This document shows, piece by piece, positions 5,031 through 51,800 of a stretch of 64,000 nucleotides of DNA. The stretch is from Minisyncoccota bacterium. Its GTDB lineage: Bacteria > Patescibacteriota > Minisyncoccia > Phycocordibacterales > UBA9973. The stretch is from contig JAGOUX010000002.1 of NCBI GenBank assembly GCA_018061035.1, positions 24,722-88,721 on the forward strand. The letters are read 5' to 3'. The notes under the pieces were generated by a model. It saw only the letters and a program-made list of their open reading frames with translations. It was not told where the DNA came from and did no database searches. Within the stretch, counting starts at the first letter, position 1. Each line of letters opens with the position of its first letter. The translations under genes and the position numbers were made by a program.

Positions 5031-6128
5031 ATGAAACTGGAATGCGGAATAGAAAAAATAAAAAATGGTATTTCTCAAACAGAAAGAATAACTGGTAAGA
5101 ATCTAACTCTTCCAATCTTAAACTCAATACTTTTAATTGCTTCTGGTAAATCTTTAAAACTTAGATCAACAAACTTAAGCCTTGGAATTGAAATAGAAAT
5201 CCCAGCCAAGATTGAGAAAGAGGGAATAGTCGCGGTTTCAGGAAGTGTTCTTTCAGGAGTATTTTCCAATATGAGCTCAAACGAGAATGTTATCCTTGAG
5301 AGTACTGATGGAAATCTGTTAATAAAGACAAATAAAAATAAAATAAAACTCAAAGGGCAACCACACGAGGATTTTCCAACAATTCCTCAAGTAGAAGGTG
5401 TTGAATTTGATATTGAGGCCAAGAAAATTGTTGAGGGGATAAAGTCTGTATATTACAGCTCTTCAGTCTCTGATATTAAACCCGAGATTTCAAGTGTTTA
5501 TATTTATACCAACGACGATAATCTTGTTTTTGTTTCAACCGATTCCTTTAGGCTTGCTGAGAAAAAAATTCGGGTTAAAAATATAGAGGAAATTAACGGA
5601 ATACTTATCCCTTTTAAAAATATTTCAGAAATATTAAGAATATTTGGAGACTTCGCCGGCTCATTGAAAGTAAAGTTTAGTAAAAACCAAATGTCGTTTT
5701 CTTCCGATAACATCTATCTAACTTCAAGGATAATAGACGGAGTTTTTCCAGATTATAGACAGATTATTCCCAAAGAGCCAAAAACCGAAGCTGTGGTGTT
5801 GAAACAAGACTTATTGAGTGCTCTAAAACTCTCAAATATCTTCTCAGACAAGTTTAATCAGGTTAGTCTAGCTATTAAGCTAAAAGAAAAACTATTTGAG
5901 CTGTCATCGTTAAACAACGATATTGGCGAAAACAAAACCTACTTAGATGCAGCTATAAAAGGAGAAGATGTAGAGCTTAGTTTTAATTATAAATACTTCT
6001 TAGACTGCTTCCAATCAATTAATTCAGATAGTGTTGTGATCAAAGTCACTGAGGCTACTAGACCTATAGTAGTATCACCTGTTTCTGATACTTCATTTAC
6101 ATATCTTATAATGCCAATGAATAGGTAA
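5031..6128 (+). CDS. dnaN: DNA polymerase III beta sliding clamp
   Basis: 365 aa with three-domain clamp architecture, directly after dnaA. Confidence 0.9.
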   Translation: MKLECGIEKIKNGISQTERITGKNLTLPILNSILLIASGKSLKLRSTNLSLGIEIEIPAKIEKEGIVAVSGSVLSGVFSNMSSNENVILESTDGNLLIKTNKNKIKLKGQPHEDFPTIPQVEGVEFDIEAKKIVEGIKSVYYSSSVSDIKPEISSVYIYTNDDNLVFVSTDSFRLAEKKIRVKNIEEINGILIPFKNISEILRIFGDFAGSLKVKFSKNQMSFSSDNIYLTSRIIDGVFPDYRQIIPKEPKTEAVVLKQDLLSALKLSNIFSDKFNQVSLAIKLKEKLFELSSLNNDIGENKTYLDAAIKGEDVELSFNYKYFLDCFQSINSDSVVIKVTEATRPIVVSPVSDTSFTYLIMPMNR

Positions 6129-6139
6129 TTAAGAATCGA

Positions 6140-6397
6140 ATGATTGAGATCAAAGATTTATTGTCCCGATTTAGAATAATACTTTCTTCTGATGATTCTA
6201 AAAAGGAGTCTATTATTTCAGCATTAAATAAAACAATAAAAATTTCCTTAAAAAAAGAAGATATCAAGATTAAGAATAATATAATTTACCTCAACATAAA
6301 ACCAATCTATAAAAATGAAATTCTAATCAAAAAAGAACAAATTTTTACCGAACTAAAAAAATCCTTTGGTGAAAAAACACCATCTGATATACGTTAA
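6140..6397 (+). CDS. small DUF721/DciA-like protein
   Basis: 85 aa basic protein immediately after dnaN. C-terminal pattern IYLNIKPIYKNEILIKKEQIFTELKKSFGEK resembles the DUF721 family commonly found at this locus. Confidence 0.35.
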   Translation: MIEIKDLLSRFRIILSSDDSKKESIISALNKTIKISLKKEDIKIKNNIIYLNIKPIYKNEILIKKEQIFTELKKSFGEKTPSDIR

Positions 6398-6399
6398 AG

Positions 6400-8925
6400 T
6401 TATTTAACTCTAAAAGTAGAAGAAACTTCTCCTATGTTATAAGCAGTGTCGTAAGCTATTATTTTCAGAGTGTTTATTGCGGCCAAATTATCTAATTCTC
6501 TCGGAGAGAAAGAGAAAACCAATCCCGAATCAGTCGTACCAAGGTATACATCGTTTATAAAAATATCAGCCTTCGATATTGGCATTGTTCCCATACTTGA
6601 AAGCTTAACTTGGATGTTTTGGTCGACAGGATAGGTGGTGGTGTTATCTGGCTGAAGTATTACCACCACAGGCTTCGAAGACTCTGTGTGGATGTCGTCT
6701 AACAAAACAGGCTTGTCATTTATAGTTATTATTGGATAGTTTTGTTTATTATTAGCCCACCAATTCTGTACCGGTATTTCCCAATGGTTAAACTGTGAGT
6801 TGTTTGCAGGGTTTGTTGGAGCTGGGCCAGTAATATCACTTCGATCAAGCCAATACAAGATTGAATGCACATTAGTAATAACTTTCTCCTGCCTTGTTTC
6901 TTTTGGGGTAAAAACTGTAGCTAGTTTTCCTGATATTTTATCAATAAAAAAATTATCATTTCCTGACCAATACCCTCTAAGAATTGGCTTTACAGTTAGT
7001 TCATCATAATCTAGATCTGGCGTCTCAAATTTTTCATTCGGCAAAGTTTTAAGTGCCTCGGTAATAACTTTATTCCAAATCGGTCCTGCCACAGTAGAAC
7101 CTCCCTTGGTCATTGGCTTATTGTCATTATTACCAGCCCAGACACCTACAACTATCGAAGGAGTGTAACCTATTGTCCAAGCGTCCTTATTGTTGTTTGT
7201 GGTACCGGTTTTAACAGCTACTTCGTGCCCAGCCACCTTAAGAATTGAATTAGCACCAAAGGTTGGGGTTCGAGCAACATTATCCTTTAGAATATCTGAA
7301 ACCATTAGAGCACTGTTTTTAGGTAGTACTTCTCGTGAGTTTGGTATGTATTCTTCTAATATATTGCCATTAGTATCCTCGATTTTTAAAACACCGGTGT
7401 AATTATTGCGAATACCATCATTAGCAAGCACACCATATGCAGAGGTAATATCTAAAAGCGATACTTCACCACCTCCGATAACAAGAGTAAGTCCATACTG
7501 GCCTATATCACCAAGTGTGGTTATACCCATTTTTTCTGCTACAGCGAGTGAGTCTTTTGGTGTAGTTAAATAAAATAGTTTTACTGCGGGAACGTTTATC
7601 GACTGAGCTAGAGCATCACGCAATTTCATTGGCCCTCTAAATTTTCCATCATAGTTGTCTGGCATATAACACTCGCTTTGTTTGTGGCCAGCAGTTGCTT
7701 GTCCATAAGCGTTACAAGTAGTCTGAAATTCAGTAGGTAGGTCAAACAGTACTGTGTCGGGTGTAAACCCCTTGCTGAAGGCTGTAGCGTAAATGAAGGG
7801 CTTAAAAGAGGATCCAGGTTGTCTGTTTGCTGTTGTGATGTTGAAGTTGCCGTCAATTTCTTTATCAAAATAATTCCTCGAGCCAACCATCGTTAGGATC
7901 TGGCCAGTTTTTGGATCAATAGCAATTACGCCAGTATTTTTTCCATTCCAATCCTTTTCATTTTGAAGAGCACCAACCTTTGCAAATTCTTCAGCTTTTG
8001 ATTGAAGATCATAATTTATAGTTGTTGTGACTTTTAGACCACCCTTTTCTATCATGTCAGCTCCATATTTTTGTTCGAGGTAGTCTTTGATGAAAAATAC
8101 AAAGTGAGGAGCTTTAATACCAGTAGTTGCTTGTGGTTGAAAAACCACCACTTCTGTTTTGGCCGCATCATACTCAGCCTGAGTTATAAATTTTAGCTCG
8201 AGTTCACGCGAAAGAACTAAATTTTTACGTGTTTCAAGTTTGTCTTTGTTTTTACCGTAAGGAGAAAGATATGTAGGGGATTGAGGTATGGCAGCCAAAT
8301 ACGCAGCTTCAGCTATTGTGAGATTGACGGCGTGTTTATTAAAATAAGTTTTACTTGCTTCCTCTATACCGTAGATAGTTCCACCGTACGGATTCTCATT
8401 GAGATAATATTCCAAGATTTTATCTTTAGGCATTGAGCCATCTATTTTTACAGCTAGAACCCACTCCTTCATTTTTCTTATAGGGCTTCGTTTTGGGGTA
8501 AGTAAGGTGTTTTTTACAAGCTGTTGAGTAATAGTCGAACCACCACCACCAATTCCAAAACCAAAAAGATTTGAAAGAATAGCTCGAGCTGTAGAAGTCA
8601 CACGAACACCATGATGGTTGTAAAATTCAGAGTCCTCGATAGCGATGGTAGCATTTTTAATATTTGGCCCCATCTGCTCAAAAGTGATATCAGTGCGTTT
8701 TGTGTCGTTGTGTATGTCGTAGAGGAGAATCTCACCAGTACGATCGTATATTTTAGTGGAATTTTCTACCTTGCGGTCGTTAAAAGAATTGAAATCAGGT
8801 ATTCGTAGCGAAGATAACCAGATTATTATGAGTCCTATGAATAAAATGGCTGCACTGACGCCAAAAATCAATACATTTTTCCAAAAGTGCTTGTTCTTTT
8901 TGAATCGTTTAAATATATTTAACAT
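6400..8925 (-). CDS. mrcA: class A penicillin-binding protein (transglycosylase GT51 + transpeptidase) with C-terminal extension
   Basis: GT51 motifs IEDSEFYNHHGV, RKMKE and transpeptidase SxxK/SxN-like regions. ATG at 8923-8925 is chosen because it precedes the TM anchor; the ORF track extends to a TTG at 9033. Confidence 0.85.
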   Translation of the reverse strand: MLNIFKRFKKNKHFWKNVLIFGVSAAILFIGLIIIWLSSLRIPDFNSFNDRKVENSTKIYDRTGEILLYDIHNDTKRTDITFEQMGPNIKNATIAIEDSEFYNHHGVRVTSTARAILSNLFGFGIGGGGSTITQQLVKNTLLTPKRSPIRKMKEWVLAVKIDGSMPKDKILEYYLNENPYGGTIYGIEEASKTYFNKHAVNLTIAEAAYLAAIPQSPTYLSPYGKNKDKLETRKNLVLSRELELKFITQAEYDAAKTEVVVFQPQATTGIKAPHFVFFIKDYLEQKYGADMIEKGGLKVTTTINYDLQSKAEEFAKVGALQNEKDWNGKNTGVIAIDPKTGQILTMVGSRNYFDKEIDGNFNITTANRQPGSSFKPFIYATAFSKGFTPDTVLFDLPTEFQTTCNAYGQATAGHKQSECYMPDNYDGKFRGPMKLRDALAQSINVPAVKLFYLTTPKDSLAVAEKMGITTLGDIGQYGLTLVIGGGEVSLLDITSAYGVLANDGIRNNYTGVLKIEDTNGNILEEYIPNSREVLPKNSALMVSDILKDNVARTPTFGANSILKVAGHEVAVKTGTTNNNKDAWTIGYTPSIVVGVWAGNNDNKPMTKGGSTVAGPIWNKVITEALKTLPNEKFETPDLDYDELTVKPILRGYWSGNDNFFIDKISGKLATVFTPKETRQEKVITNVHSILYWLDRSDITGPAPTNPANNSQFNHWEIPVQNWWANNKQNYPIITINDKPVLLDDIHTESSKPVVVILQPDNTTTYPVDQNIQVKLSSMGTMPISKADIFINDVYLGTTDSGLVFSFSPRELDNLAAINTLKIIAYDTAYNIGEVSSTFRVK

Positions 8926-20890: not shown

Positions 20891-21040
20891 AAGCGCCGAT
20901 AGCTGTTTTGGTAAGTCGTTAGATTGTAAGCGCTGATAGCTGTTTTGGTAAGTCGTTAGATTATATGCGCCCATAGCTGTTTTGGTAAGTCGTTAGATTA
21001 TATGCGCCCATAGCTGTTTTGGTAAGTCGTTAGATTATAT
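20891..21040 (+). repeat. four tandem 36-40 bp repeats, each a degenerate copy of a tRNA 5' half (acceptor + D-arm: GCGCC[CG]ATAGCTGTTTTGGTAAGTCG) plus TTAGATTATAT
   Basis: Units at 20891-20926, 20927-20966, 20967-21003 and 21004-21040; the last two are identical. The array abuts the genuine tRNA-Lys 5' end. Confidence 0.7.
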
Positions 21041-21113
21041 GCGCCCATAGCTCAGCTGGTAGAGCAGATCCCTTTTAAGGATAAGGTCGTTGGTTCGATT
21101 CCAACTGGGCGCA
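21041..21113 (+). tRNA. tRNA-Lys (anticodon TTT)
   Basis: Cloverleaf by hand: acceptor GCGCCCA/TGGGCGC, D-arm GCTC-AGCTGGTA-GAGC, anticodon loop CTTTTAA, T-loop TTCGATT, discriminator A. Confidence 0.85.
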
Positions 21114-30524: not shown

Positions 30525-31823
30525 ATGAAAACCCTCGACCAACAAGCACCAACACCACCACTTACAGGACGAGCCGGACTTGATCTCTTAAAAGCATCAT
30601 CTGCAAAAGTTGCAGGTATTCGTTTGGTTGATTTACTTAAAACCCCAGAAGGCAAAGAATTATTAAAAATAAAGAAGATTATTCTTGCTGGGCCACCTCG
30701 TTCAGGAAAATCCTGTCTACGACAAGGATTAAAAGATACTATTCGCACCATACCTGATGCTCCATATCCTCTTTTTATTACTGGTTGTCCAGATGGTGAA
30801 GGCGCGTGGTTTCAAGAGGCCATGAATAATGACCCAGCCCTAGCTGCTAAATTAAAAGCAGAATATAAATCTAAATTTACTCCAGAATTTGTATCGAGGG
30901 TCTCGGAAGGGGTAAAAAATCTATCCTTACCCCATAGTCCATTAAATTTTATAGATATAGGCGGAGTGACATCTCCAGAAAATGAAGAAATCTGCAAGTA
31001 TGCAAATGGTGCTGTTCTATTGTGCGGAGAAAGTGCCACAAAAAATGGAGCACCGGCAGAATGGAAAGCTTTTTTTGCAAAACTAGGTATTCCTGTTATT
31101 GCGGAAGTTTATTCAGATTATCATGGCAAGACTGATATTATTGATGGAGTGGGGGAGGATGGTGTTTTTAGGGGTTCTGTCCATCACCTTGAGCGTGGAG
31201 AGAATCTTTCAGGAAGAGAAGCAATTCAAGATTTGGCAAAATTTATTGTAAATTTAGGCGAGGAGCAAAGCAAAGAATCCAACTTGTCGCTAATGTCTAT
31301 TGAGCAAATAAAAGAAAGGGTCGATCTTCTAATTGAAGATTGGCAGAAGAAACTACCACAGACCCGAATCGTATTAGGCGGATCATTGGTGTCTGGATTG
31401 TTTATTTTAGATGAGCACACAAAATTGATTGATGTTGATGTAAGATTTCTGACTGATGGACAACCAAGTCAAGATTTAATAGAAAATATTGAAAATGTTA
31501 CAGGTTTGAAATATAGAAAAACAATAGCAGTGGAAGATTGGCCACAGGGTACGAGCGAAGGGTATATGATAGAAGGCCAAATTAAATTACCCGACTGCGA
31601 TTTGCCTTTAGACATAGAGGGTTGTTTGAGGAATAATAAGTATGTTGGCTGGGCAAGATTTTATCAACAAGTTTTGACACCCACAGAGCTGGTTGACTTC
31701 TTGGAAAAGAAGAAAAGTCTACGAGATCATAAGGTGGAATATAAAGCATTAAAAAAAGAAATGATAAAATTAGTTATTGGGCGGTGCATTGAGCGAGGTC
31801 TTGTTGATGCACCACAAGGCTAA
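30525..31823 (+). CDS. two-domain protein: N-terminal P-loop kinase-like NTPase (GPPRSGKS) fused to a C-terminal minimal nucleotidyltransferase-like domain (GGS...DxD)
   Basis: Walker A ILAGPPRSGKSCL; C-terminal IVLGGSLVSGLFILDEHTKLIDVDV fits the Pol-beta NTase hG[GS]x9-13Dh[DE]h pattern. Confidence 0.45.
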   Translation: MKTLDQQAPTPPLTGRAGLDLLKASSAKVAGIRLVDLLKTPEGKELLKIKKIILAGPPRSGKSCLRQGLKDTIRTIPDAPYPLFITGCPDGEGAWFQEAMNNDPALAAKLKAEYKSKFTPEFVSRVSEGVKNLSLPHSPLNFIDIGGVTSPENEEICKYANGAVLLCGESATKNGAPAEWKAFFAKLGIPVIAEVYSDYHGKTDIIDGVGEDGVFRGSVHHLERGENLSGREAIQDLAKFIVNLGEEQSKESNLSLMSIEQIKERVDLLIEDWQKKLPQTRIVLGGSLVSGLFILDEHTKLIDVDVRFLTDGQPSQDLIENIENVTGLKYRKTIAVEDWPQGTSEGYMIEGQIKLPDCDLPLDIEGCLRNNKYVGWARFYQQVLTPTELVDFLEKKKSLRDHKVEYKALKKEMIKLVIGRCIERGLVDAPQG

Positions 31824-32584
31824 TTATTTTCTGGATATTTATTCCACAGTGCGTCAAAAAGCATTTCAAAGGTTTTTGCTATGTTTACGTCTTCTATGAT
31901 TGTAGTAATAGAGCAATCTTTAAAAGAAGTTAGACCAACCTTGTCGCCGTATATAATAACCTGAGCTGGATTGTTTAATTCAATCCTAGGCACCCTTCTT
32001 CTTTCTATTAGGTACTTCTCGTCCTCCTCTTTGGTGACTGAGCTTGGTGTGTTTTTTATTGGAACAATTAGTTTTATTTTAATACCAGCTTCACGAAATA
32101 CCTCTCTATTTTTAGAGGTTATGGACTTCAAATCATCAGTGTTGTTATCAAGAGGGGAGCGAATCAGCTTTATATCTTTTCGTGTGTGTAGTATGTCTTT
32201 ATTCAAAATTTTAATTCCTTCCAGTCCTTCATAAAAACGTACTGTTGGTTTTCCACAAATAAGATTAAATTGTGCACCCATAGTACTTATAGCTTCATGA
32301 AGAGCTTGGTCTGCTAGTTTTAAGTCTTCTTCTTTTTTTTGTACCAATGTATGGAGCTTGGATGGATGCAGTGCTGAGAAGGTGCTTACAGATCCAGGTA
32401 CGGAATGCTCATTTATAAGCCCCAATTCTACAAGTTGCTTTAATATTTTATACACCAAACTACGATTAACCCTACTTTCCAGGGCAATTTTTCTGGCATG
32501 TAGTGTGCCCGTATTCACTAACGTAGAATATACTTTTGCCTGTTCCTCATTTAAGCCTATTTGCTCTAGTAATTTTATACTCAT
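31820..32584 (-). CDS. TrmB-family transcriptional regulator
   Basis: N-terminal wHTH LNEEQAKVYSTLVNTGTLHARKIALESRVNRSLVYKILKQLVELGLI and TrmB-like C-terminal domain; convergent with and overlapping the upstream module by 4 nt. Confidence 0.6.
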   Translation of the reverse strand: MSIKLLEQIGLNEEQAKVYSTLVNTGTLHARKIALESRVNRSLVYKILKQLVELGLINEHSVPGSVSTFSALHPSKLHTLVQKKEEDLKLADQALHEAISTMGAQFNLICGKPTVRFYEGLEGIKILNKDILHTRKDIKLIRSPLDNNTDDLKSITSKNREVFREAGIKIKLIVPIKNTPSSVTKEEDEKYLIERRRVPRIELNNPAQVIIYGDKVGLTSFKDCSITTIIEDVNIAKTFEMLFDALWNKYPENN

Positions 32585-32764
32585 AAATTGTTTTTTCTAT
32601 ATAACAATAATACCCTTATATTATCACGGTGGTATGCATGCTGTCAAATTTGTGTGAAAATATCCTTATTTATATAGATATATAATAAATTATGCTTGAC
32701 TTTAGACCCCTAATATGCTATACTTATATTAGTAAGGTTGGTTCTTTGAAAATAACCAGAGTCC

Positions 32765-32817
32765 TCGGCAGGTGAAGATAAACGTGAGAATTTTTCGTTT
32801 TTATCTTCACCTGCCGA
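32765..32817. other. perfect 18-bp-stem hairpin (TCGGCAGGTGAAGATAAA ... TTTATCTTCACCTGCCGA) bounding the left edge of a G+C-rich island
   Basis: Arms at 32765-32782 and 32800-32817 with a 17-nt loop; a possible terminator, insulator or att-associated structure. Confidence 0.45.
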
Positions 32818-32870
32818 CAAGCGGAGGGTGAAAAACAACCCGTCGGCGTAAAAGTCGACATTTTTGAGGA

Positions 32871-33176
32871 GTGATAATGACGACGACGTACAATGTTGTT
32901 CTCGAGGGTGGAAACACCCTCAAAATGTCATTCGGCGTTTCGGCGCAGAATGACGTGATTGTCCGCGACGCTGTCGCGGCGGTCAAGGCGCTCGAGCTGA
33001 CCGGTGGTAAGCTGGTCAAGCTCAACGGACCGGCGAGCCTGCCGGTCGCGTGCGCCATCGCGCACGAGGTCGGGCACCTTTACGGTGCCGTTGCCTGCTT
33101 CGACCCGAAGCTGGCAAAGTATGTCGTGGCAGTGAGCCACGACCCCGACTTCGCGGTCGGTGATCTCGTGGACTGA
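32871..33176 (+). CDS. small protein resembling Csx3/Crn3 (CRISPR-associated ring nuclease family), on a G+C-rich island
   Basis: About 100 aa with pattern GGKLVKLNGPASLPVACAIAHEVGHLYGAVACFDPKLAKYVVAVSHDPDFAVGDLV. This recalls the Csx3 core (GRAPIWLY..H..H..YDPRLG..VVVxRHHPDYPF) from memory only; strong RBS GAGGAG. Confidence 0.3.
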   Translation: MIMTTTYNVVLEGGNTLKMSFGVSAQNDVIVRDAVAAVKALELTGGKLVKLNGPASLPVACAIAHEVGHLYGAVACFDPKLAKYVVAVSHDPDFAVGDLVD

Positions 33177-33445
33177 AACATCAAATCCTGGACTCCCAAA
33201 AGGATCTAGGTCGGGTGATCATCGCATCACCCGTGCACTCGCAAGATGTGTATCTTGCCTGATGAGTCCAAAAGGACGAAAGTGTGGTTCTTTAAAAATA
33301 AAATATTCTGAAACTAGACAACTAGATTGTAAATCTATTTGTTGTTTGCTTGTCTGGTTTCAGACTAAAGGTGAAGTTGGCGACCTGAACTGCCAACATT
33401 TCACGCTCACGGCACAAGCCACGAGCACGAAAACGGGAGAGAAAA

Positions 33446-34942
33446 ATGAGAACGATCAGAATCGACACGACCAAGCGCGGTTTTGCAGCGATGTGGGAGT
33501 CGGGTGGAGGAATGACCTCCGGCGGTTCGGCTACCATCATCACTGGCAAGAATGGCGAAGCGCGGCGCCCGGTTTACATGCCACGTGGCGGGCATCTCGC
33601 CTGTGGCAATCACGCACTCATCACGGTTCACGAAGGTTTCTATGTCGTGCATGCCAGTGTGTCGCGCGGCACTCGTTCATCAGCCAGTATCTCCCGAATC
33701 GTCTCGGTGTCCGTGAAAGACATCGACGGCGAGAAGTGGGAAGCGAAGGCTGAAGTGGAGGAGGTTTATACCTTTTCCAAGGGCGAGTGGAACAAACCGC
33801 TCGAAGAGAAGTTCATCAAGGCAGTCGAGGCGGCCTTCCGTAAGGCAGGGGTGTATCACTGCCGGTCGGCCTACTACATCGACATTTCGGCGAAGCCGGA
33901 AGCCTCCGAGGCTGAGTTGACGAAACAAGCCGAAGAGACTCGCAGGCAGGACGAAGATCGTGCGCGTCTCCGGCAGGCCAAGGTTGACCGCGAAGCACAA
34001 GCCAAGGCGGAAGCCGAAGCTGCGAGCAAGGCGGCCAAGGAAGCCGGACTCGGTGCTCGTCTCGATGCGGTAAATGTTCGTCTGACGGCTCTCGGGCGCG
34101 AGCTTGTGGAGCAGGGTGAGGTTTCGTTCAAGTGGAGCTGGCAGAACCAGTACTACACTGAACAGGTCGTCGCCAACGTCGAGCGGAGCGTGACCCAGCT
34201 CGAGGCCGAGAAGATCGAGCAGGAACGCAAGCGCATCACGCGTGAAACGTTCCAGCCGAAGTTCGAGGTGTTCAAGCCCCGGATCGAAGCACTCAGTCTC
34301 ACGGTCGAGTTCGGAACGGACAGCGTCCGTCTCACTGGAGACTACTACGGGCAACCGTACTCCGATGAAGGTGTGGCGAAGTTCGCGGCCGAACTAGAAA
34401 AGCGGGAGCGGGACGCTGCCGAGGCGAGGGCAAAAGCCGACGCCGAAGCGAACTACCAACGGCGAAAGACGGAAGCGGTGGTCTTCGGGCTGCCGACCGA
34501 CATCCGCATCTGGCGTCGTCGCGGTGGTCGTACCAACGCGGGTGACGGGTGGGTCATCGGACCTAACGGCCAGGACCGTGCCAACACGGGTTGGTCGGAT
34601 CCGTACTCGCGTCGCCTTCAGCGCTACGGCGAGGGCGAGATGATCTGGGAGCAGGTGCTTCCGGGCGAGATCGTACTCAAGTGGTCGAAGTCGTCTTCGG
34701 CTGCCCCGCACGAGTTCGTGGTCGTCTACCACCCCACTGAGCCTCTCACCGAGGCTCAACTCGAGCGCATTCTGGAAATCGAGGATGAGCTGGAGAAGGA
34801 GTGGAAAAATGCTCGTGGTCTCGCTTCCGGCCTGTCGAGTCCGCCTGTCGGTGGTGGTTGGGGTCTTCTCCCGAAGTCCTCACCAAGCTCGAAAGGAGGC
34901 ACGGCGACGCTCGACGATCTCCGCTGCAAGTGGGGCGGGTGA
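33446..34942 (+). CDS. hypothetical 498-aa protein: N-terminal globular domain, Ala/Glu/Lys-rich coiled-coil (TolA-like AEAKAEAE repeats), C-terminal domain
   Basis: G+C-rich ORF with RBS GGGAGAG. It has no signal peptide or TM segment and no recognisable catalytic motif. Confidence 0.4.
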   Translation: MRTIRIDTTKRGFAAMWESGGGMTSGGSATIITGKNGEARRPVYMPRGGHLACGNHALITVHEGFYVVHASVSRGTRSSASISRIVSVSVKDIDGEKWEAKAEVEEVYTFSKGEWNKPLEEKFIKAVEAAFRKAGVYHCRSAYYIDISAKPEASEAELTKQAEETRRQDEDRARLRQAKVDREAQAKAEAEAASKAAKEAGLGARLDAVNVRLTALGRELVEQGEVSFKWSWQNQYYTEQVVANVERSVTQLEAEKIEQERKRITRETFQPKFEVFKPRIEALSLTVEFGTDSVRLTGDYYGQPYSDEGVAKFAAELEKRERDAAEARAKADAEANYQRRKTEAVVFGLPTDIRIWRRRGGRTNAGDGWVIGPNGQDRANTGWSDPYSRRLQRYGEGEMIWEQVLPGEIVLKWSKSSSAAPHEFVVVYHPTEPLTEAQLERILEIEDELEKEWKNARGLASGLSSPPVGGGWGLLPKSSPSSKGGTATLDDLRCKWGG

Positions 34943-34971
34943 TAAATTCCTTTCTGAAAGGAGGTGATAAA

Positions 34972-35115
34972 ATGTTGAAGTTCGTTGGCTTGGCCCTGTT
35001 GTTGGTGTGGGCCGGTGCGATCGCAATTACGCACAAGGCCCCCACAGAGCTCTTTTTTCTCGGCACCATCGCATTATTGGGTGGTGTTGTTGAGAACCAC
35101 TTCTCTCGCAAGTAG
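34972..35115 (+). CDS. 47-aa single-TM membrane peptide (MLKFVGLALLLVWAGAIAITHK...)
   Basis: Strong RBS GGAGGTG 7 nt upstream; G+C-rich; last gene of the island. Confidence 0.35.
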   Translation: MLKFVGLALLLVWAGAIAITHKAPTELFFLGTIALLGGVVENHFSRK

Positions 35116-35204
35116 AGAGAGTGAGGTTATAAAACATATCTGCCGAGCATGAAAATTGTTCGGCATTCTTGTTAAGTTTATAAGTTTCTTGTAGATTTAT
35201 AGGG

Positions 35205-38712: not shown

Positions 38713-39384
38713 ATGTCAAAGGACATGCTCGGCCCGCTGACCCGGGCGCTCGTCGGAGTTCCAGCAAAGATGCTGGGGCTCGTGCTCGATATCACCAACC
38801 GCCTCGGATCGGCGGACAGTGATACCTTCTACTCCGACCTCGCGAAGTTCGTGAGAGAGTGGAAGAAGGCAGTGGCGGTAATTCCGTCCCTGCTCGAGTT
38901 CGTCCGCACCACGACTGCGCCGGACACGAGCGAACCGTTCATCGCCAACGCTAAGTTCAAGCTGAAGAAGGACGGAGGAATCTGCTCCTACCTCGGCGAC
39001 AACTTCAATGCGTGGTTCCTCGCGGGCACCGGCAACATCGACGCTCCTGGCGGTGAGACGACGCTGACGATATCGCGGCTCACCAAGGCTTCGGTTGACC
39101 AGCCGATTCTGGACGAGCTCGGCGACAAGACCGATGTGGCACTCGTGGACATGTTTGCCAAGATGGAGGCACAGTCCAAAGGTCAGCCGGGTGAACTCCT
39201 CGTCGACGGTCGCGTGAACATCTTCTACGTTCGCGACCAGGACGGCGTCCTGCGCCCTGTCTACGTGCACTGGCTCGGCGACGGCTGGTGCGTCAACGCC
39301 TGCTCCACCGACTGCACTGCTCATTGGTATGCCGCTTACCAGGTCTTCTCTCGCAATTCTGCCCTCACATACTCGGCGCCTTAG
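38713..39384 (+). CDS. hypothetical protein on a G+C-rich insert
   Basis: 223 aa; own promoter TTGACT-16-TATAAT (38637-38664) and RBS AGGAG. It has no recognisable domain; a long antisense ORF is a composition artefact. Confidence 0.4.
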   Translation: MSKDMLGPLTRALVGVPAKMLGLVLDITNRLGSADSDTFYSDLAKFVREWKKAVAVIPSLLEFVRTTTAPDTSEPFIANAKFKLKKDGGICSYLGDNFNAWFLAGTGNIDAPGGETTLTISRLTKASVDQPILDELGDKTDVALVDMFAKMEAQSKGQPGELLVDGRVNIFYVRDQDGVLRPVYVHWLGDGWCVNACSTDCTAHWYAAYQVFSRNSALTYSAP

Positions 39385-43737: not shown

Positions 43738-43763
43738 ACATTTACGCTATCGCGTATACATGC
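43738..43763. promoter_or_regulatory. operator-like site ACATTTACGCTATCGCGTATACATGC (copy 1), overlapping the cas2-like gene promoter
   Basis: Near-identical to the copy at 44178-44205; internal dyad symmetry (CAT...ATG ends); TATAAT at 43772-43777 just downstream. Confidence 0.45.
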
Positions 43764-43801
43764 AATGGGTGTATAATTTACACATGCCTTACTATAAGGG
43801 T

Positions 43802-44161
43802 ATGCGAGTAAATGGTTTCGGCTTGCCAACCTTTAAAGATAATAGTAAAAGCCGCGTAAAGCAGAAGAGTAGGAAAAGGAACATCTACCACACTACCTTT
43901 TCTTCTCCGTTTGAAAAGGATTCACCCAAGAACCTAATTTTGATGTATGACGTCGCTGAAGAGAAAAAGAAGGAGAGGGATTGGTTTCGTCGGCAACTCA
44001 AAAACTTTGGTTTTACAATGATCCAAAGAAGTGTCTGGGTCGGTCCTTCGCCTCTACCTACAGAGTTCCTAGACTATGTTAAAGTAATTGGCTTGAAAGA
44101 CAATCTTAAGACTTTCAAATTGGCTAAAGCTTATACAGGGAAGGAGAGCGTATTTAATTAA
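43802..44161 (+). CDS. Cas2-like small protein (solo, no cas1 or CRISPR array nearby)
   Basis: Core LILMYDVAEEKKKERDWFRRQLKNFGFTMIQRSVWV parallels the Cas2 N-terminal motif (ILMFDM...ER..FRKFL...GF.M.QFSV). ATG at 43802 chosen because earlier in-frame ATGs lie inside or upstream of the -10. Confidence 0.4.
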   Translation: MRVNGFGLPTFKDNSKSRVKQKSRKRNIYHTTFSSPFEKDSPKNLILMYDVAEEKKKERDWFRRQLKNFGFTMIQRSVWVGPSPLPTEFLDYVKVIGLKDNLKTFKLAKAYTGKESVFN

Positions 44162-47364: not shown

Positions 47365-49293
47365 TTAATGATGCGCAGTATGATTGTCGTGTCCATCTAG
47401 TGGATGAGAATCATATGAAGTTGGTGGTACTGGTGCGGCTAAGTATCGCTCTACGTATCGTGGTCGAGTCTGGTCGTACAAGTATCGTCCAAGGGCGATA
47501 AGTATGAGCACGAGCACGATTAGTAGTAACCAGCCGAAGATATTTGAAGGAAGGAAAAATCCTGATCCAAAAGCATTGGCTCCAAAGAATCCCACTTCAT
47601 TACCATCTCTCCATACCTGAGCTGAAACATTTGCGCTCACGGTTTGAGTCTGACCATTCACATCAGTGTATGAAAGAATTGCAGGGAAGTTTAGAACTGT
47701 TCCAGGATTGATATTCTCTCGTACTTTGACGCGGATAGTTATAGAACCTTGAGCTCCAGCTCGTAGAGTTCCGAGATTGAAGGTTAGATTATTTCCATTT
47801 CGGAAAGGGTTATTGGGATTAGAGAACATATAATCAACCTCTGATGGAAGAGATATCTGAAGAGTAAGATTTGTGACAGAAGTAGTACCTACGTTCTGAT
47901 AGCTCACTGTGTAGGTGATCTCGTCTCCTGGTCGTGGGTTGGTGTTATCAAGAGTAGGAACGATAGGCTGATTGCGATCTACAGAAGAAGAAACGATCAC
48001 AAGAGAGCTTGCTAGGGTTTTTACTGTTGTAGACTGACCTCGTACATTTACAGTTGCAGAATTACTGATAGAACCATAACCATTTGTACAAGTGATACTA
48101 TATGTTCGGCTTGATGTTAGAGAACCAGTATAGAAAGATGCAGGACCAATGCTTTTTGTACCAGCCCATCCTACAGATCCGCCGGTGCCGTAACAAGAAG
48201 TAGCATTTGCTGTGCTCCATCTTATGAAGGTAGCGCCATTGTAGGCTACTGAAGTGTCGTCAGCATAGATAGTGACTGTGGGCTGATTGTTTATGACAGT
48301 ATTGTATCTGCAAGGAAGTACGCCTCGGTAGTTGATAGCGCTGACATCGTTACAGATTTGAAGTTGTGGGTACTGACATGGAAGAGCACCTCGGTAGTTG
48401 GTAGCTGAGGGGTCATTACATAGTAGTACTTGGTAGTACTGACAAGGCAATGCACCACGATAATTAGTTGCTGATGGATCATTACATACCTGTACTTGAT
48501 AGTACTGACATGGAAGAGCACCTCGGTAGTTGGTAGCTGTAGGATCATTACATACTTGCTGTTGATAATACTGACATGGCAGTGTGCCGTGATAGTTGGT
48601 AGCAGAAGGATCCTGACAAAGCTGAGGTGGGTAAGTACATGGAAGACTTCCTCCATAGTTGCTTGCAGTTGTATCCTGACAAGTTTGGTTGCTTACATAT
48701 ACGATAGCAGATGCGTTGGCAGAGCCAGCACTATTTGTACAGGTGATATTGTAAGGAGTTGTACCGGTAAGGACGCCGGTAGGGAATGTGCCAGAAGTAT
48801 TCTTTCCTCCTGACCATCCGAATGCACCAGCGCTTCCCACACAAGAAGTTGCGTTGGTTGAAGACCAGATAACAGTACTAGATCCTCCATAGCTAATACT
48901 GCTTGGATTCGCAGAGATGGTAACTGTTGGAAGCTGGGTTGGGCCTGTACAAGAACCACCACTCATAACTGTTCCTGTTACGTAAGCAGTGGCCACTACT
49001 CCTGAAGAATTTGTTCCAGTAATAGTGAAAGTTGTTGTTTGATTCAAAGTTACATCTCGTTCACCTGTAGGAGGGACAGATCCAACATTGGTTATGTTAA
49101 CCACTGTAGCGTCTGTTGATGACCAGATTAAATGAATCTGCTGTCCTGCGCAAACAGTGCTAGGAGATGCAGATATGCTTACTGAGGGAACTCCATTTTC
49201 AGCCTTAGCTTGAGATAGGGGAAATAAAAAGGCCCCTAGGACAATTACTAGCGACATGAAAACATTGATAATGGCGTTTTGTGTGTGTTTCAT
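47365..49293 (-). CDS. secreted cell-surface repeat protein with DUF11-like domain and C-terminal TM anchor
   Basis: Signal peptide and Thr/Ser/Gly-rich Ig-like modules. Five or so tandem 22-aa repeats CNDPSATNYRGALPCQYYQVQV (66-bp DNA repeats at about 48306-48690), a DUF11-like segment and a C-terminal hydrophobic anchor. Confidence 0.6.
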   Translation of the reverse strand: MKHTQNAIINVFMSLVIVLGAFLFPLSQAKAENGVPSVSISASPSTVCAGQQIHLIWSSTDATVVNITNVGSVPPTGERDVTLNQTTTFTITGTNSSGVVATAYVTGTVMSGGSCTGPTQLPTVTISANPSSISYGGSSTVIWSSTNATSCVGSAGAFGWSGGKNTSGTFPTGVLTGTTPYNITCTNSAGSANASAIVYVSNQTCQDTTASNYGGSLPCTYPPQLCQDPSATNYHGTLPCQYYQQQVCNDPTATNYRGALPCQYYQVQVCNDPSATNYRGALPCQYYQVLLCNDPSATNYRGALPCQYPQLQICNDVSAINYRGVLPCRYNTVINNQPTVTIYADDTSVAYNGATFIRWSTANATSCYGTGGSVGWAGTKSIGPASFYTGSLTSSRTYSITCTNGYGSISNSATVNVRGQSTTVKTLASSLVIVSSSVDRNQPIVPTLDNTNPRPGDEITYTVSYQNVGTTSVTNLTLQISLPSEVDYMFSNPNNPFRNGNNLTFNLGTLRAGAQGSITIRVKVRENINPGTVLNFPAILSYTDVNGQTQTVSANVSAQVWRDGNEVGFFGANAFGSGFFLPSNIFGWLLLIVLVLILIALGRYLYDQTRPRYVERYLAAPVPPTSYDSHPLDGHDNHTAHH

Positions 49294-49513: not shown

Positions 49514-50833
49514 ATGAACAAATTCAAGTTTTTTGCAGTCCTCGTGTTGTTCTCGGTTTTCTCAGCAGCTTGTCCGGAGAAGTTCAAGCGTCCGTGCAGC
49601 GACGATGAGTGTAAGACCACATCGTCGCCACTCGCGCCTACTACTGCTGTTTTGGTGGAAGTTTGCGTTTCGGCAAATGCCAGCGCTTCCGCAATGGCAG
49701 TGTGTACGTATGGTGTTGCAACCGGTACCGGTAGCGGTTCGGCTAAAGTTTGTGCAATGGTCTCTCCAGAGAATCACGAGGCGTGGAAGAAGGAGAACCT
49801 GGCTGTCGCGCAAAAGGACGCGAATGCTCAAGCCACAGCAACTGCTGTTTGTCTTGCGCCACCTGTTGTTCCTCCGACAGCTCCACCCACCGCTCCGCCA
49901 CCCACATCGCCACCACCCGCAATCGACGTGTGCCCGAACATCTCGGGCGTGCAGGAAACCATTCCTTCGGGAATGATCAAGGATGGGAACGGTAATTGCG
50001 TGGTTCCGCCAGTAATCACTGCTCCTACGTGCTCAGCACAGGGGAGCGTCCAGGCAGGTAATGCTGCAGTTTTCACCGCAACGGGAGGGAATGGTACATA
50101 CACTTGGTTTGGCAACGGTTCGCCGTCGTCAGCAAGTGGCTCTGTGTTCTCAACAACATACGCGAGCGCTGGCACTTACTCGGTGACGGTCAGCTCAGCA
50201 GGAATGAGTAATACCTGCAGTGTCGTTGTCACCACAGTTCCGCCGCCGGCGTGTGTTTGGTCGGTTGATCCGGTGATTCACTTCACCGCATCGGGCGGCC
50301 AAGGTTCGGCATCAGTTATTCCGAATCGGTCGGACTGTCCACAACCGACGTGGACTTCAAGCGGTTACCCAAGCTGGGTGACAGTGAATAGATCGTCTGG
50401 ATCGGGAGCTGGCTCTATTGGAGTCACTGCTCCATCAAACCCGACGACCTCGATTCGCAGCCAGGTCGTCACAGTGACGGCTTCGGATGGCAACCACACG
50501 GTGACCATTACCCAGGATGCAGGCGTGGCAAGCTGCACTTGGGCAGTGGAAAATGCCACGATCGGCTGGCAGGGGGGCGAAGTTAGCGCCTCGGTCACAC
50601 CAGGCATCGGTTGTTCTGGTAACTGGTCGGCAACGACCAACAACCCTCAACAGCTTGACCTTTTGACTACAGGCGGTTCGCCGGTGATTACAATCAACGG
50701 CATAAACGCAGGGACCGTCAGGGGGTCGGTGTCGACTAATAACACCACAATCATTCGGACCTTTACCATCACGTGGACTGGTCCGGGTGGAATTTCTAAG
50801 ACTATTACGGTTACGCAAGCCGCGCATCCGTAA
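49514..50833 (+). CDS. secreted Pro/Thr/Ser/Gly-rich protein with Ig/PKD-like repeats, on a G+C-rich insert
   Basis: Signal peptide MNKFKFFAVLVLFSVFSAAC, PPTAPPTAPPPTSPPP linker and repeated Cys-containing beta-rich modules; RBS GGAGAGG; conspicuously G+C-rich. Confidence 0.5.
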   Translation: MNKFKFFAVLVLFSVFSAACPEKFKRPCSDDECKTTSSPLAPTTAVLVEVCVSANASASAMAVCTYGVATGTGSGSAKVCAMVSPENHEAWKKENLAVAQKDANAQATATAVCLAPPVVPPTAPPTAPPPTSPPPAIDVCPNISGVQETIPSGMIKDGNGNCVVPPVITAPTCSAQGSVQAGNAAVFTATGGNGTYTWFGNGSPSSASGSVFSTTYASAGTYSVTVSSAGMSNTCSVVVTTVPPPACVWSVDPVIHFTASGGQGSASVIPNRSDCPQPTWTSSGYPSWVTVNRSSGSGAGSIGVTAPSNPTTSIRSQVVTVTASDGNHTVTITQDAGVASCTWAVENATIGWQGGEVSASVTPGIGCSGNWSATTNNPQQLDLLTTGGSPVITINGINAGTVRGSVSTNNTTIIRTFTITWTGPGGISKTITVTQAAHP

Positions 50834-51137: not shown

Positions 51138-51800
51138 TCAGCGCTTAGCGCGAATGCAATTGGCGTACCAGTAGTAGGTGCTACCTGCTCCTACCACAAG
51201 GCTGCCGGCTACCCATTTCCATGGAAAGCCTTTACCCTTTTTTTCTGGGAGGACGGCGTCTTTGCCGTCGCGACCATCTCGGCCGGGAGGTCCAGGAGGA
51301 CCAGGGATTCCTTCCGGGCCTTGCGGTCCAGCGGGACCCACGTCTCCTTTGGGGCCGGCTGGTTTTTCCAGCGGCACCCACTCTCGAATCGTGTTCCAGC
51401 ACGACGCGTCCAAGTACGGGACACCGTTGATGTCAAATACGAGATTGTCTCCAATTTCGTGGATGACCCAGGTGTATTCGCCGGCCTTTGTGATCTTGGA
51501 CTCACGGACCGACTCGAAGGCACAACCCGCTGTGGGTGAGCCCTTGGCGTTGGGGTGCCGTGGCTTGTCGTACTTCGGATGGTTCCTGTAAGAGCGGTAG
51601 TTTCCGCTTTTGTACGCGGCGACGCATGACTCTTTCGAGTCGAAGAAGGTCATCGTCTCGATGGCCTCCGGCGTGTGCTGGGCCGCGACGGCCTTCTGTG
51701 CGGCATCGACGAAGTCCTTCTTGGTCAATGTTGACGCGGTGAGGGTGTTCATCGTGCCCGTGAGGCACAGGACCAGCATCAGTGCAAAAAACTTCTTCAT
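51138..51800 (-). CDS. secreted collagen-like (G-X-Y)n repeat protein with C-terminal TM anchor, G+C-rich
   Basis: Signal peptide; GPKGDVGPAGPQGPEGIPGPPGPPGRDGRDGKD gives 11 consecutive GXY triplets; C-terminal WKWVAGSLVVGAGSTYYW hydrophobic segment. Confidence 0.55.
   Translation of the reverse strand: MKKFFALMLVLCLTGTMNTLTASTLTKKDFVDAAQKAVAAQHTPEAIETMTFFDSKESCVAAYKSGNYRSYRNHPKYDKPRHPNAKGSPTAGCAFESVRESKITKAGEYTWVIHEIGDNLVFDINGVPYLDASCWNTIREWVPLEKPAGPKGDVGPAGPQGPEGIPGPPGPPGRDGRDGKDAVLPEKKGKGFPWKWVAGSLVVGAGSTYYWYANCIRAKR

Follow-up and report, generated by a model that had tools for sequence, protein, structure and literature searches.

The 64,000-nt stretch of DNA analyzed here (called the window below; contig JAGOUX010000002.1 of the Minisyncoccota assembly GCA_018061035.1) carries a GC-rich island of ~2.2 kb in which three genes follow one another on the plus strand: a small gene of the Csx3/Crn3 family (csx3, open reading frame 1 or ORF1), a gene for an uncharacterised protein of 498 amino acids (aa) and a 47-aa open reading frame (ORF). 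Between the first two lie a predicted type III hammerhead ribozyme and a leader of three RNA hairpins. With moderate confidence, we interpret the island as an operon made up of modular cassettes, which are insulated by ribozymes and come from a GC-rich accessory gene pool spread throughout the Candidate Phyla Radiation (CPR). The anatomy of the locus, the family memberships, the covariation and the recurrence of the arrangement are counted here as demonstrated. The features are listed below in the order of their coordinates in the window (RBS, ribosome-binding site; UTR, untranslated region).

30525–31823, plus strand: 432-aa protein KBD55_01165, with a P-loop domain at residues 49–246 (match to PADLOC model PDLC01045); its GC content at third codon positions (GC3) is 0.27, host-like
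31820–32584, minus strand: TrmB-family helix-turn-helix regulator (Pfam TrmB, E 2.9e-13), divergent from the island operon
32696–32724, plus strand: sigma-70-like promoter TTGACT-17-TATACT with a TG extension, 10 of 12 matches (consensus match only)
32765–32817, plus strand: 18-bp perfect hairpin in the 5' UTR, arms 32765–32782 and 32800–32817, 100% complementary
32877–33176, plus strand: csx3, 99-aa Csx3/Crn3-family protein (101 aa from an alternative GTG start at 32871)
33213–33232, plus strand: 7-bp hairpin GGGUGAU/AUCACCC, ending 8 nt before the predicted cleavage site (fold of the 50 nt upstream, z -5.0)
33233–33287, plus strand: type III hammerhead ribozyme (Rfam RF00008 match and covariation), predicted to cleave after C33240
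33304–33367, plus strand: leader hairpin P1, long and AT-rich, 18-nt arms 89% complementary, present in the minimum-free-energy fold of the post-cleavage 5' UTR
33376–33397, plus strand: leader hairpin P2, GUUGGC/GCCAAC with loop GACCUGAACU, supported by covariation
33400–33431, plus strand: leader hairpin P3, UUC-AC-GCUC-AC-GGC(ACAA)GCC-AC-GAGC-AC-GAA, just 5' of the RBS
33446–34942, plus strand: 498-aa protein KBD55_01180 of an uncharacterised CPR family (ORF with RBS)
34972–35115, plus strand: 47-aa hydrophobic ORF with the RBS AGGAGG
35141–35165, plus strand: intrinsic-terminator-like hairpin closing the operon, a 9-bp stem followed by the T-rich TTCTTGTT (terminator-like score)

In 300-nt windows, the GC content is 0.58–0.64 from ~32800 to ~35050, against 0.31–0.42 in the flanks, and an AT-rich dip within the island at 33290–33400 corresponds to the intergenic leader. 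GC3 reaches 0.77 in csx3 and 0.71 in the 498-aa gene, compared with 0.27–0.43 in six flanking genes; the 47-aa ORF, with a GC3 of 0.71, is therefore compositionally part of the island. The sharp compositional break that a preliminary description of this DNA had singled out is confirmed by both measures, but further GC-rich ORFs are also found in the window (38713–39384 and 49.5–51.8 kb), the island being the largest GC-rich one. That description was also right in reporting three co-oriented ORFs with strong RBSs, which are GAGGAG, GGGAG and AGGAGG, respectively. Both hairpins that it had placed at the ends of the island are present and the stem of the first one is perfect. However, this first hairpin sits ~35 nt downstream of the sigma-70-like promoter in AT-rich, host-like sequence and is therefore a 5'-UTR hairpin rather than an island boundary, with a candidate role as operator palindrome or RNA stabiliser. 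Promoter-like sites are frequent in the region (nine versus 1.9 expected), including one on the minus strand upstream of the TrmB-family gene (32647–32620, 11 of 12 matches). Between the 18-bp hairpin and the RBS of csx3, a small GC-rich hairpin followed by ATTTTT (32842–32859) has a terminator-like score and could be an attenuator.

The abrupt compositional step at both ends of the island is also what an assembly chimera would produce, in which a fragment from a GC-rich organism had been joined into a low-GC contig. The gene order including both boundaries is, however, repeated in the JGI metagenome 3300043411 and in the NCBI assembly GCA_020047435.1, and the same arrangement is found in an NCBI metagenome-assembled genome (MAG) of Candidatus Pacebacteria (102-kb contig, locus tags KBD55_01165–01180) and in a Logan assembly. 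Because the junctions recur in all these sources, a chimera is very unlikely, to the point of being negligible, and the mis-assembly that had been considered earlier as a possible refutation is not borne out. Moreover, the promoter, the 5' UTR and the terminator lie in host-like sequence and frame the island sensibly, and similar GC-rich inserts occur in long contigs of many CPR genomes (related loci are given here as L numbers), including the complete 1.05-Mb chromosome L009. A related csx3-ribozyme-498-aa order is present on the 273-kb contig L026. As for the transfer from a high-GC donor suggested earlier, the island is compositionally foreign but its donor lineage was not found: among the relatives retrieved, none points to a lineage outside the CPR, and all of them are GC-rich relative to their own hosts.

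The hammerhead and the leader had gone unmentioned in the preliminary description. Within the 269 nt that separate csx3 from the 498-aa gene is the sequence CUGAUGAG-UCC-AAAA-GGA-CGAAA, and the helices around it are arranged in the type III topology: helix III (33234–33239/33281–33286), helix I (33241–33258), CUGAUGA (33259–33265), helix II (33266–33277) and GAAA (33278–33281). The core is complete, comprising C3-A9, G12-A14, A15.1-U16.1 and a cleavable N17 (C) in a U-C cleavage site, and it scores 37.8 bits against RF00008 (E 6e-6 when 2.7 kb were searched). Five copies were aligned without gaps; compensatory changes are seen in 13 of the 16 pairs, which supports the type III topology, and 96.3% of the pairing cells are complementary versus 36–46% in slid controls; the observed values were reached by none of 500 shuffles on four of five measures and by three of 500 on the fifth. 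The related loci had been located via the 498-aa protein, and a closer set of sequences (A2) was used since the broad alignment (A1) was too divergent. Searching with a covariance model built from the five aligned copies (R1) yielded 18 hammerheads in 33 sources (E 2.8e-20 to 2.2e-6), all of them intergenic and on the coding strand. In the window, L009, L014, L024, L026 and L028 they precede the 498-aa gene, and in L012, L017, L020, L021, L023, L025 and L026 they closely follow it, while the Csx3 locus L037 has one between the P-loop gene and the next gene. For most of the 18 copies, the predicted fold includes a hairpin ending immediately upstream of the hammerhead, which is more stable than shuffles (z below -2) in only ~7.

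The position of these copies relative to other genes suggests what they may do. A co-oriented ORF precedes the hammerhead-bearing 498-aa genes in the window, L009, L014, L026 and L028, and in L024 as far as its short contig extends. In L003, L012, L020, L021 and L022, which have no co-oriented upstream ORF, a promoter TTGACA-N17-TAnnnT is found in place of the hammerhead; this split leaves out L004, L005 and L006, where the leader is present. Such a pattern fits an insulator that would provide the downstream mRNA with a defined 5' end irrespective of the sequence preceding it. The role of bacterial hammerheads is largely unsettled; the insulation of neighbouring cistrons would be a concrete and testable one. 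Our literature search for hammerheads in CPR bacteria returned nothing. An exact hammerhead pattern retrieved 17 IMG/VR contigs, including viroid-sized records, and was discarded as generic, none of these contigs encoding Csx3, the P-loop protein, the 498-aa protein or a TrmB homologue.

The hammerhead is followed by a conserved leader. The post-cleavage 5' UTR folds with a z of -4.8, and a leader profile matches 33329–33447 with an nhmmer E of 1.6e-21. Five of the six P2 pairs show compensatory changes across seven loci, and the loop motif GRCCnnAACU is conserved. The consensus of P3, UUC-AC-GCYC-AC-[variable stem]-AC-GRGC-AC-GAA, has CACG four times along one strand as well as tandem A.C mismatches; 98% of its pairing cells are complementary versus 19–55% in slid controls, one pair is split 7:7 between C-G and U-A, and the inner stem varies in length and sequence and always folds. 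The 16 copies of P3 are each found 10–19 nt upstream of an ORF start. No Rfam family matches the leader credibly. Besides the 498-aa family, the leader also precedes ORFs of 306 aa (L021), 230 aa (L023), 254 aa (L028) and 345 aa (L004), and a role as a gene-specific autoregulatory site was rejected because the same leader fronts these unrelated ORFs. In L028, the 254-aa ORF lies between two hammerhead-plus-leader units (108–351 and 1250–1495) that are almost identical and share helix III; double cleavage would yield an RNA of ~1.14 kb able to re-form a complete hammerhead from its ends. Two hammerheads of L023 (at 6500 and 9166) likewise have a common helix III.

The gene behind the leader belongs to a family of at least 123 homologues, the full-length ones being 42–84% identical, in none of which a Pfam domain was detected. 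The few organism labels available name nearly always Patescibacteria, Parcubacteria, Saccharibacteria or Moraniibacteria, with a single MAG labelled Gammaproteobacteria. Pfam, NCBIfam and PHROG gave no match for the 498-aa protein or the 47-aa ORF, and the family has no match to a known fold. A confident AlphaFold model of the 498-aa protein (predicted local distance difference test 91) has beta-rich domains at the N- and C-termini and, between them, three long helices into which small beta elements are inserted; this agrees with the layout expected from the sequence in the preliminary description. The C-terminal domain taken alone matched 226 representative clusters, always at the C-terminus, in proteins of 93–1448 aa. 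Among nine of the long matches that were sampled, five are helicases of the DEAD/DEAH type, four of them with HA2, and one fusion is encoded in L011. These repeated fusions to DEAH/HA2 helicases make it probable that the 498-aa protein works on RNA or together with it, and they point as far as an RNA-related role and no further. A connection with phages was dropped, as the 498-aa protein has no relative in IMG/VR and no PHROG match, and only two weak matches of its N-terminal domain to Fusobacterium jumbo phages. Long antisense ORFs cover the 498-aa gene in many loci, up to its full length (33680–34354 on the minus strand of the window, 5968–7452 on the minus strand of L003), and most likely arise from high GC combined with codon periodicity without being genuine genes.

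The limits of nucleotide homology argue for a modular assembly of these parts. In most loci, homology with the island starts at ~33400–33460, within or just after P3, and ends at ~34870–34935, about the stop codon of the 498-aa gene; the exceptions are L024, where it starts at 33369, and L026, where it starts at 32941, within csx3. The csx3 part and the 498-aa part therefore have mostly separate histories. Homologues of the 498-aa protein that are 78–84% identical occur in unrelated neighbourhoods of different CPR classes. The 47-aa ORF is hydrophobic and preceded by a strong RBS. It may encode a genuine membrane protein of small size; it forms a singleton cluster without homologue in any related locus and is not part of a conserved system. 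Various ORFs were noted in the neighbouring cassettes, namely an RNase T (L017, Pfam match), a weakly RNase H-like ORF (L009, PHROG E 9e-4) and an RtcB (L039, Pfam match). After the downstream hammerhead of L012 (6636–7508) and L020 (5554–6501), an ORF starts with MKIFTHF.VDLDAVCS, which by eye looks like motif I of the DHH phosphoesterases; no match was obtained from PHROGs, nor from Pfam for the called gene. In L005, the ORF of 96 aa that precedes the 498-aa homologue was taken by eye for a DUF1874/AcrIII-1 ring nuclease, an assignment dropped when neither Pfam nor PHROGs matched it.

The first cassette encodes a true Csx3/Crn3-family protein, as had been proposed. ORF1 passes the Pfam Cas_csx3 hidden Markov model (PF09620, cut-off 21, score 30.8 bits, E 2.7e-7), is recognised by five Csx3 models of PADLOC (E 3.9e-20, 6.5e-17, 1.7e-8, 1.9e-7 and 5.7e-6) and has the Csx3 fold, whereas it stays below the cut-off of the NCBIfam equivalog TIGR02579 (27.7 versus 55.4). 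Its real start is probably the ATG at 32877, which fits the called gene and the N-terminus of the family. The best sequence matches in the PDB are all AfCsx3 (AF_1864), with an identity of only 22%. Five residues of AfCsx3 are absolutely conserved or catalytic (H57, H60, D69, R71 and H80; PMC7371418). They correspond to H65, H69, D78, K80 and H90 of ORF1, the pairing of H69 with H60 being shifted by one residue and hinging on gap placement; H65, H69, D78 and H90 are invariant and K80 is nearly so among 66 CPR homologues. The arginine R71 is thus replaced by a lysine, and R46 by a proline. Detectable Csx3 relatives number 439, many of them from Patescibacteria. A PADLOC scan of the 64 ORFs of the window detected no Cas10, Csm/Cmr, CARF or SAVED effector and no cyclase, and no CRISPR array was found in these 64 kb, so that the description of a csx3 gene apart from type III CRISPR-Cas or CARF effectors holds within the window. 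The only related signal comes from a 133-aa ORF (43760–44158), residues 59–97 of which align with several Cas2 models over their N-terminal third (E ~5e-8), with neither cas1 nor a CRISPR array elsewhere in the window. A Csx3 outside CRISPR may degrade cyclic tetra-adenylate (cA4) as a counter-defence or process RNA ends.

This csx3 gene is not a standalone one, contrary to what had been assumed. The 432-aa protein encoded 1 kb upstream covers positions 87–285 of the 286-position PADLOC model PDLC01045 (Csx3-AAA) with an E of 4.9e-47, and Csx3 covers positions 3–98 of the same model. A P-loop protein of ~190 aa, homologous to residues 49–246 of the 432-aa protein, is encoded close to Csx3 in five of five distinct Csx3 loci, and the two genes are adjacent in L026, L037, L039 and L040. 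The P-loop domain has 622 homologues, several of which are labelled Csx3 by JGI or NCBI; Pfam and NCBIfam gave no match for the 432-aa protein. Judging from the model coverage, Csx3 and the P-loop domain are a split form of Csx3-AAA (Csx3'): both domain families are present, but in separate genes 1 kb apart with the TrmB-type gene between them instead of in a single polypeptide. The closest homologues of the P-loop domain are only 190–260 aa long, and the C-terminal fusion in the 432-aa protein therefore seems lineage-specific; by eye, its residues ~250–432 include GGSLVSG...DVDVRF, which resembles a Pol-beta-type nucleotidyltransferase motif. In two unrelated loci, bpMoxR AAA+ genes occur a few kb downstream of the Csx3/P-loop pair (L037, 8826–10312; L040, 9869–10306), followed in L037 by a gene with a faint VWA-domain match. 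An rpsO gene, a gene with a NYN domain and one for a tyrosine recombinase are found close to both L014 and L040, which suggests that these two loci share a variable region. Taken together, a large CPR subfamily of Csx3, with hundreds of members, has kept the ring-nuclease residues and has a P-loop protein, not CRISPR, as its partner, which would imply either cyclic-oligoadenylate signalling outside CRISPR in reduced genomes or another Csx3 job related to RNA ends.

These findings bear on the first interpretation given to the island, in which the three proteins form one cyclic-oligoadenylate machine for signalling, defence or counter-defence, Csx3 sensing or degrading cA4, the large protein being an effector or scaffold and the peptide a membrane effector. 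Their genes are indeed co-oriented, close together, of the same foreign composition and enclosed by one promoter and one terminator, Csx3 is a real member of a ring-nuclease family, and the csx3-ribozyme-498-aa order is found once more in the distant genome L026. Yet csx3 precedes the 498-aa gene in only two of ~25 distinct loci, and the three remaining Csx3 loci that were read lack the 498-aa gene. The peptide has no counterpart in related loci, and a predicted self-cleaving ribozyme with its leader separates the first two cistrons. Furthermore, no PADLOC-DB 2.0 defence model matches the 498-aa protein at an E of 1e-5, and the window yielded no cyclase, CARF or SAVED effector. The claim of a single three-gene module is consequently not borne out, and we consider a machine of this kind quite improbable.

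A different view of the same island is that a mobile element or degraded prophage carries it as anti-defence cargo, where Csx3 and the P-loop protein would act as an AcrIII-1-like ring nuclease destroying cA4 and the hammerheads would process prophage transcripts. Its foreign composition and variable gene neighbourhoods are in line with this, gene-flanking hammerheads are known from prophages, in one case around the anti-restriction gene ardA (PMC3088659), and the Csx3 locus L039 looks phage-like (RuvC, DNA methylase, primase and RtcB by Pfam match). Viruses and plasmids are also known to carry ring nucleases. On the other side, the genes flanking the island in the window include neither phage structural genes nor an integrase, PHROG does not match any island protein, and the 498-aa gene is absent from IMG/VR and phage records apart from the weak N-domain matches. 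The Csx3 and P-loop families are, in addition, very widespread in the CPR, and type III CRISPR is rare in CPR genomes. Anti-defence cargo is thus an unlikely explanation, albeit one that deserves some weight.

We now return to the operon of ribozyme-insulated cassettes, for which the following scheme may be proposed. A single transcription unit would extend from the promoter near 32700 to the terminator near 35150, facing the divergent TrmB-type gene. Its first cassette would be csx3, partnered by the P-loop domain that the 432-aa gene encodes 1 kb upstream. Cassette 2 would start with the type III hammerhead, which would cut the primary transcript after C33240 and leave a csx3 mRNA ending in a 3' hairpin with a 2',3'-cyclic phosphate and a separate 498-aa mRNA bearing a 5'-OH, the folded ribozyme body and the three-hairpin leader right before the RBS. 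Hammerhead and leader would together act as a portable insulator and expression module, reused before unrelated ORFs, and the last cassette would be a lineage-specific small ORF, here the 47-aa one. Cleavage itself, its consequences for mRNA stability, a horizontal origin and what Csx3/P-loop and the 498-aa protein do biochemically are all inferred.

Several observations weigh against this reading. No recombinase or other mobility gene is consistently linked to the loci, and the 498-aa gene was not found on any phage or IMG/VR contig. The hammerhead of the window scores below the Rfam gathering threshold (37.8 versus 48.5) and is not reported in gathering mode; copies below this score are therefore invisible to routine annotation. 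The core of the L009 copy has a U4-to-C change, and the self-cleavage of all these copies is a prediction. The P-loop gene of the window is host-like in GC and lies beyond another gene, its functional pairing with csx3 being suggested by other loci. Finally, full-length TrmB homologues are encoded on the opposite strand upstream of the 498-aa family in L006, L010, L017 and L033, so that a TrmB-type regulator recurs in five loci from different CPR lineages, which could mean an old, vertically kept locus rather than a mobile cassette.

In its full form, this last possibility dispenses with recent transfer altogether: the TrmB-type and 498-aa genes would be an ancient vertical CPR locus whose high GC is maintained by selection, for instance on mRNA structure or stability or on the codon use of this RNA-associated protein. 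It could draw on the GC content of the 498-aa gene, which is 0.56–0.68 in every locus whatever the GC of the host and higher than that of its surroundings everywhere except in L008 (GC 0.63 for the whole locus), on the lack of a donor outside the CPR, and on the coding RNA, which folds more stably than 20 shuffles (z -3.3). It would, however, have to accommodate proteins of 78–84% identity in unrelated neighbourhoods of different CPR classes, next to cassette genes that differ from one locus to another. A GC3 of 0.71–0.77 is also hard to hold by selection alone in a genome with a GC3 near 0.3, all the more as the unrelated csx3 and 47-aa ORF have it too. We regard purely vertical descent as rather unlikely.

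If the cassette reading is correct, the novelty of the locus lies in its CPR setting, in the composite and reused ribozyme-leader unit, in the link to a large non-CRISPR Csx3/P-loop subfamily and in the uncharacterised 498-aa family, and the small GC-rich islets of low-GC CPR genomes appear to mark a common accessory gene pool. A much bolder extension, which we regard as a long shot, is that the hammerhead-plus-leader units are cassettes at the RNA level giving rise to circularised coding RNAs, a bacterial counterpart of eukaryotic retrozymes and viroid-like circular RNAs. Double cleavage, as conceivable in L028 and for the hammerheads at 6500 and 9166 of L023, would then set free an RNA one unit long, bearing a 5'-OH and a 2',3'-cyclic phosphate, which could re-form a full hammerhead and circularise alone or by RtcB, the GC-rich cassette pool of the CPR would spread or be expressed via such RNAs, and Csx3/P-loop, the DEDD and DHH-like nucleases and RtcB would act on ribozyme-made RNA ends, not on CRISPR messengers.

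Other features of the window were recorded besides the island. A second GC-rich islet at 38713–39384, between ruvA and a low-GC region, consists of a 223-aa ORF with a GC3 of 0.79, for which PHROG gave no match and near which neither hammerhead nor leader was found. Two GC-enriched ORFs are located at 49514–50833 and 51138–51800 (minus strand), one encoding a 439-aa Pro/Thr/Ser-rich protein with an N-terminal hydrophobic segment and the other a 220-aa protein with a collagen-like GPxG repeat tract. At 20893–21052, a 37-nt tandem repeat (4.3 copies, 95% identical) has units that each open with the first 12 nt of the tRNA gene 21041–21113, as if the 5' end of this tRNA had been repeatedly duplicated. 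Another tandem repeat, of 66 nt (or 132 nt) in 3.7 copies, is found at 48370–48612 within the minus-strand ORF 47368–49293.

The closest known systems each share part of this architecture. The Csx3/Crn3 family (AfCsx3 AF_1864, PF09620) has been described mainly from euryarchaea and cyanobacteria (PMC7371418); ORF1 differs from it by its 22% identity, its position below the NCBIfam equivalog cut-off and the R71-to-Lys and R46-to-Pro changes, and it resides in a CPR host, in a window devoid of type III CRISPR, CARF effector and array. A Csx3 fused to a "kinase/transferase" domain has also been described (PMC7371418). The 99-aa protein and the 432-aa P-loop domain resemble such Csx3-AAA/Csx3' proteins (PADLOC PDLC01045 and PDLC01059) in that they match the N- and C-terminal halves of one model and are encoded by neighbouring genes in every Csx3 locus read. 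Unlike in the fused form, the halves are here separate genes of differing composition with the TrmB gene between them, and the P-loop protein of the window has an extra C-terminal domain, nucleotidyltransferase-like by eye only. Clustered hammerheads flank prophage genes and cleave polycistronic RNA in vitro (Perreault et al. 2011, PMC3088659). The present copies share with those of prophages their complete cores, their intergenic position on the coding strand, their occurrence several per locus, where they delimit single genes, and the proposed role of cutting a polycistronic RNA into gene-length mRNAs. They differ in being type III, in the CPR, coupled to a conserved leader of ~150 nt and an upstream hairpin, reused before different ORFs, outside any prophage context in the window and below the Rfam gathering score. 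Ribozyme insulators also exist in engineered form (RiboJ). Lastly, the mobile regulatory cassettes or promoter-early stem-loops of T4-type phages and the gene cassettes of integrons provide examples of a short repeated regulatory unit placed before interchangeable ORFs in variable regions. The unit repeated here is a ribozyme with an RNA leader rather than a promoter or attC, and an integrase is not consistently linked to it. A further likeness to these interchangeable cassettes may lie in the near-identity that copies of the unit in a single locus can show, as they do in L028.

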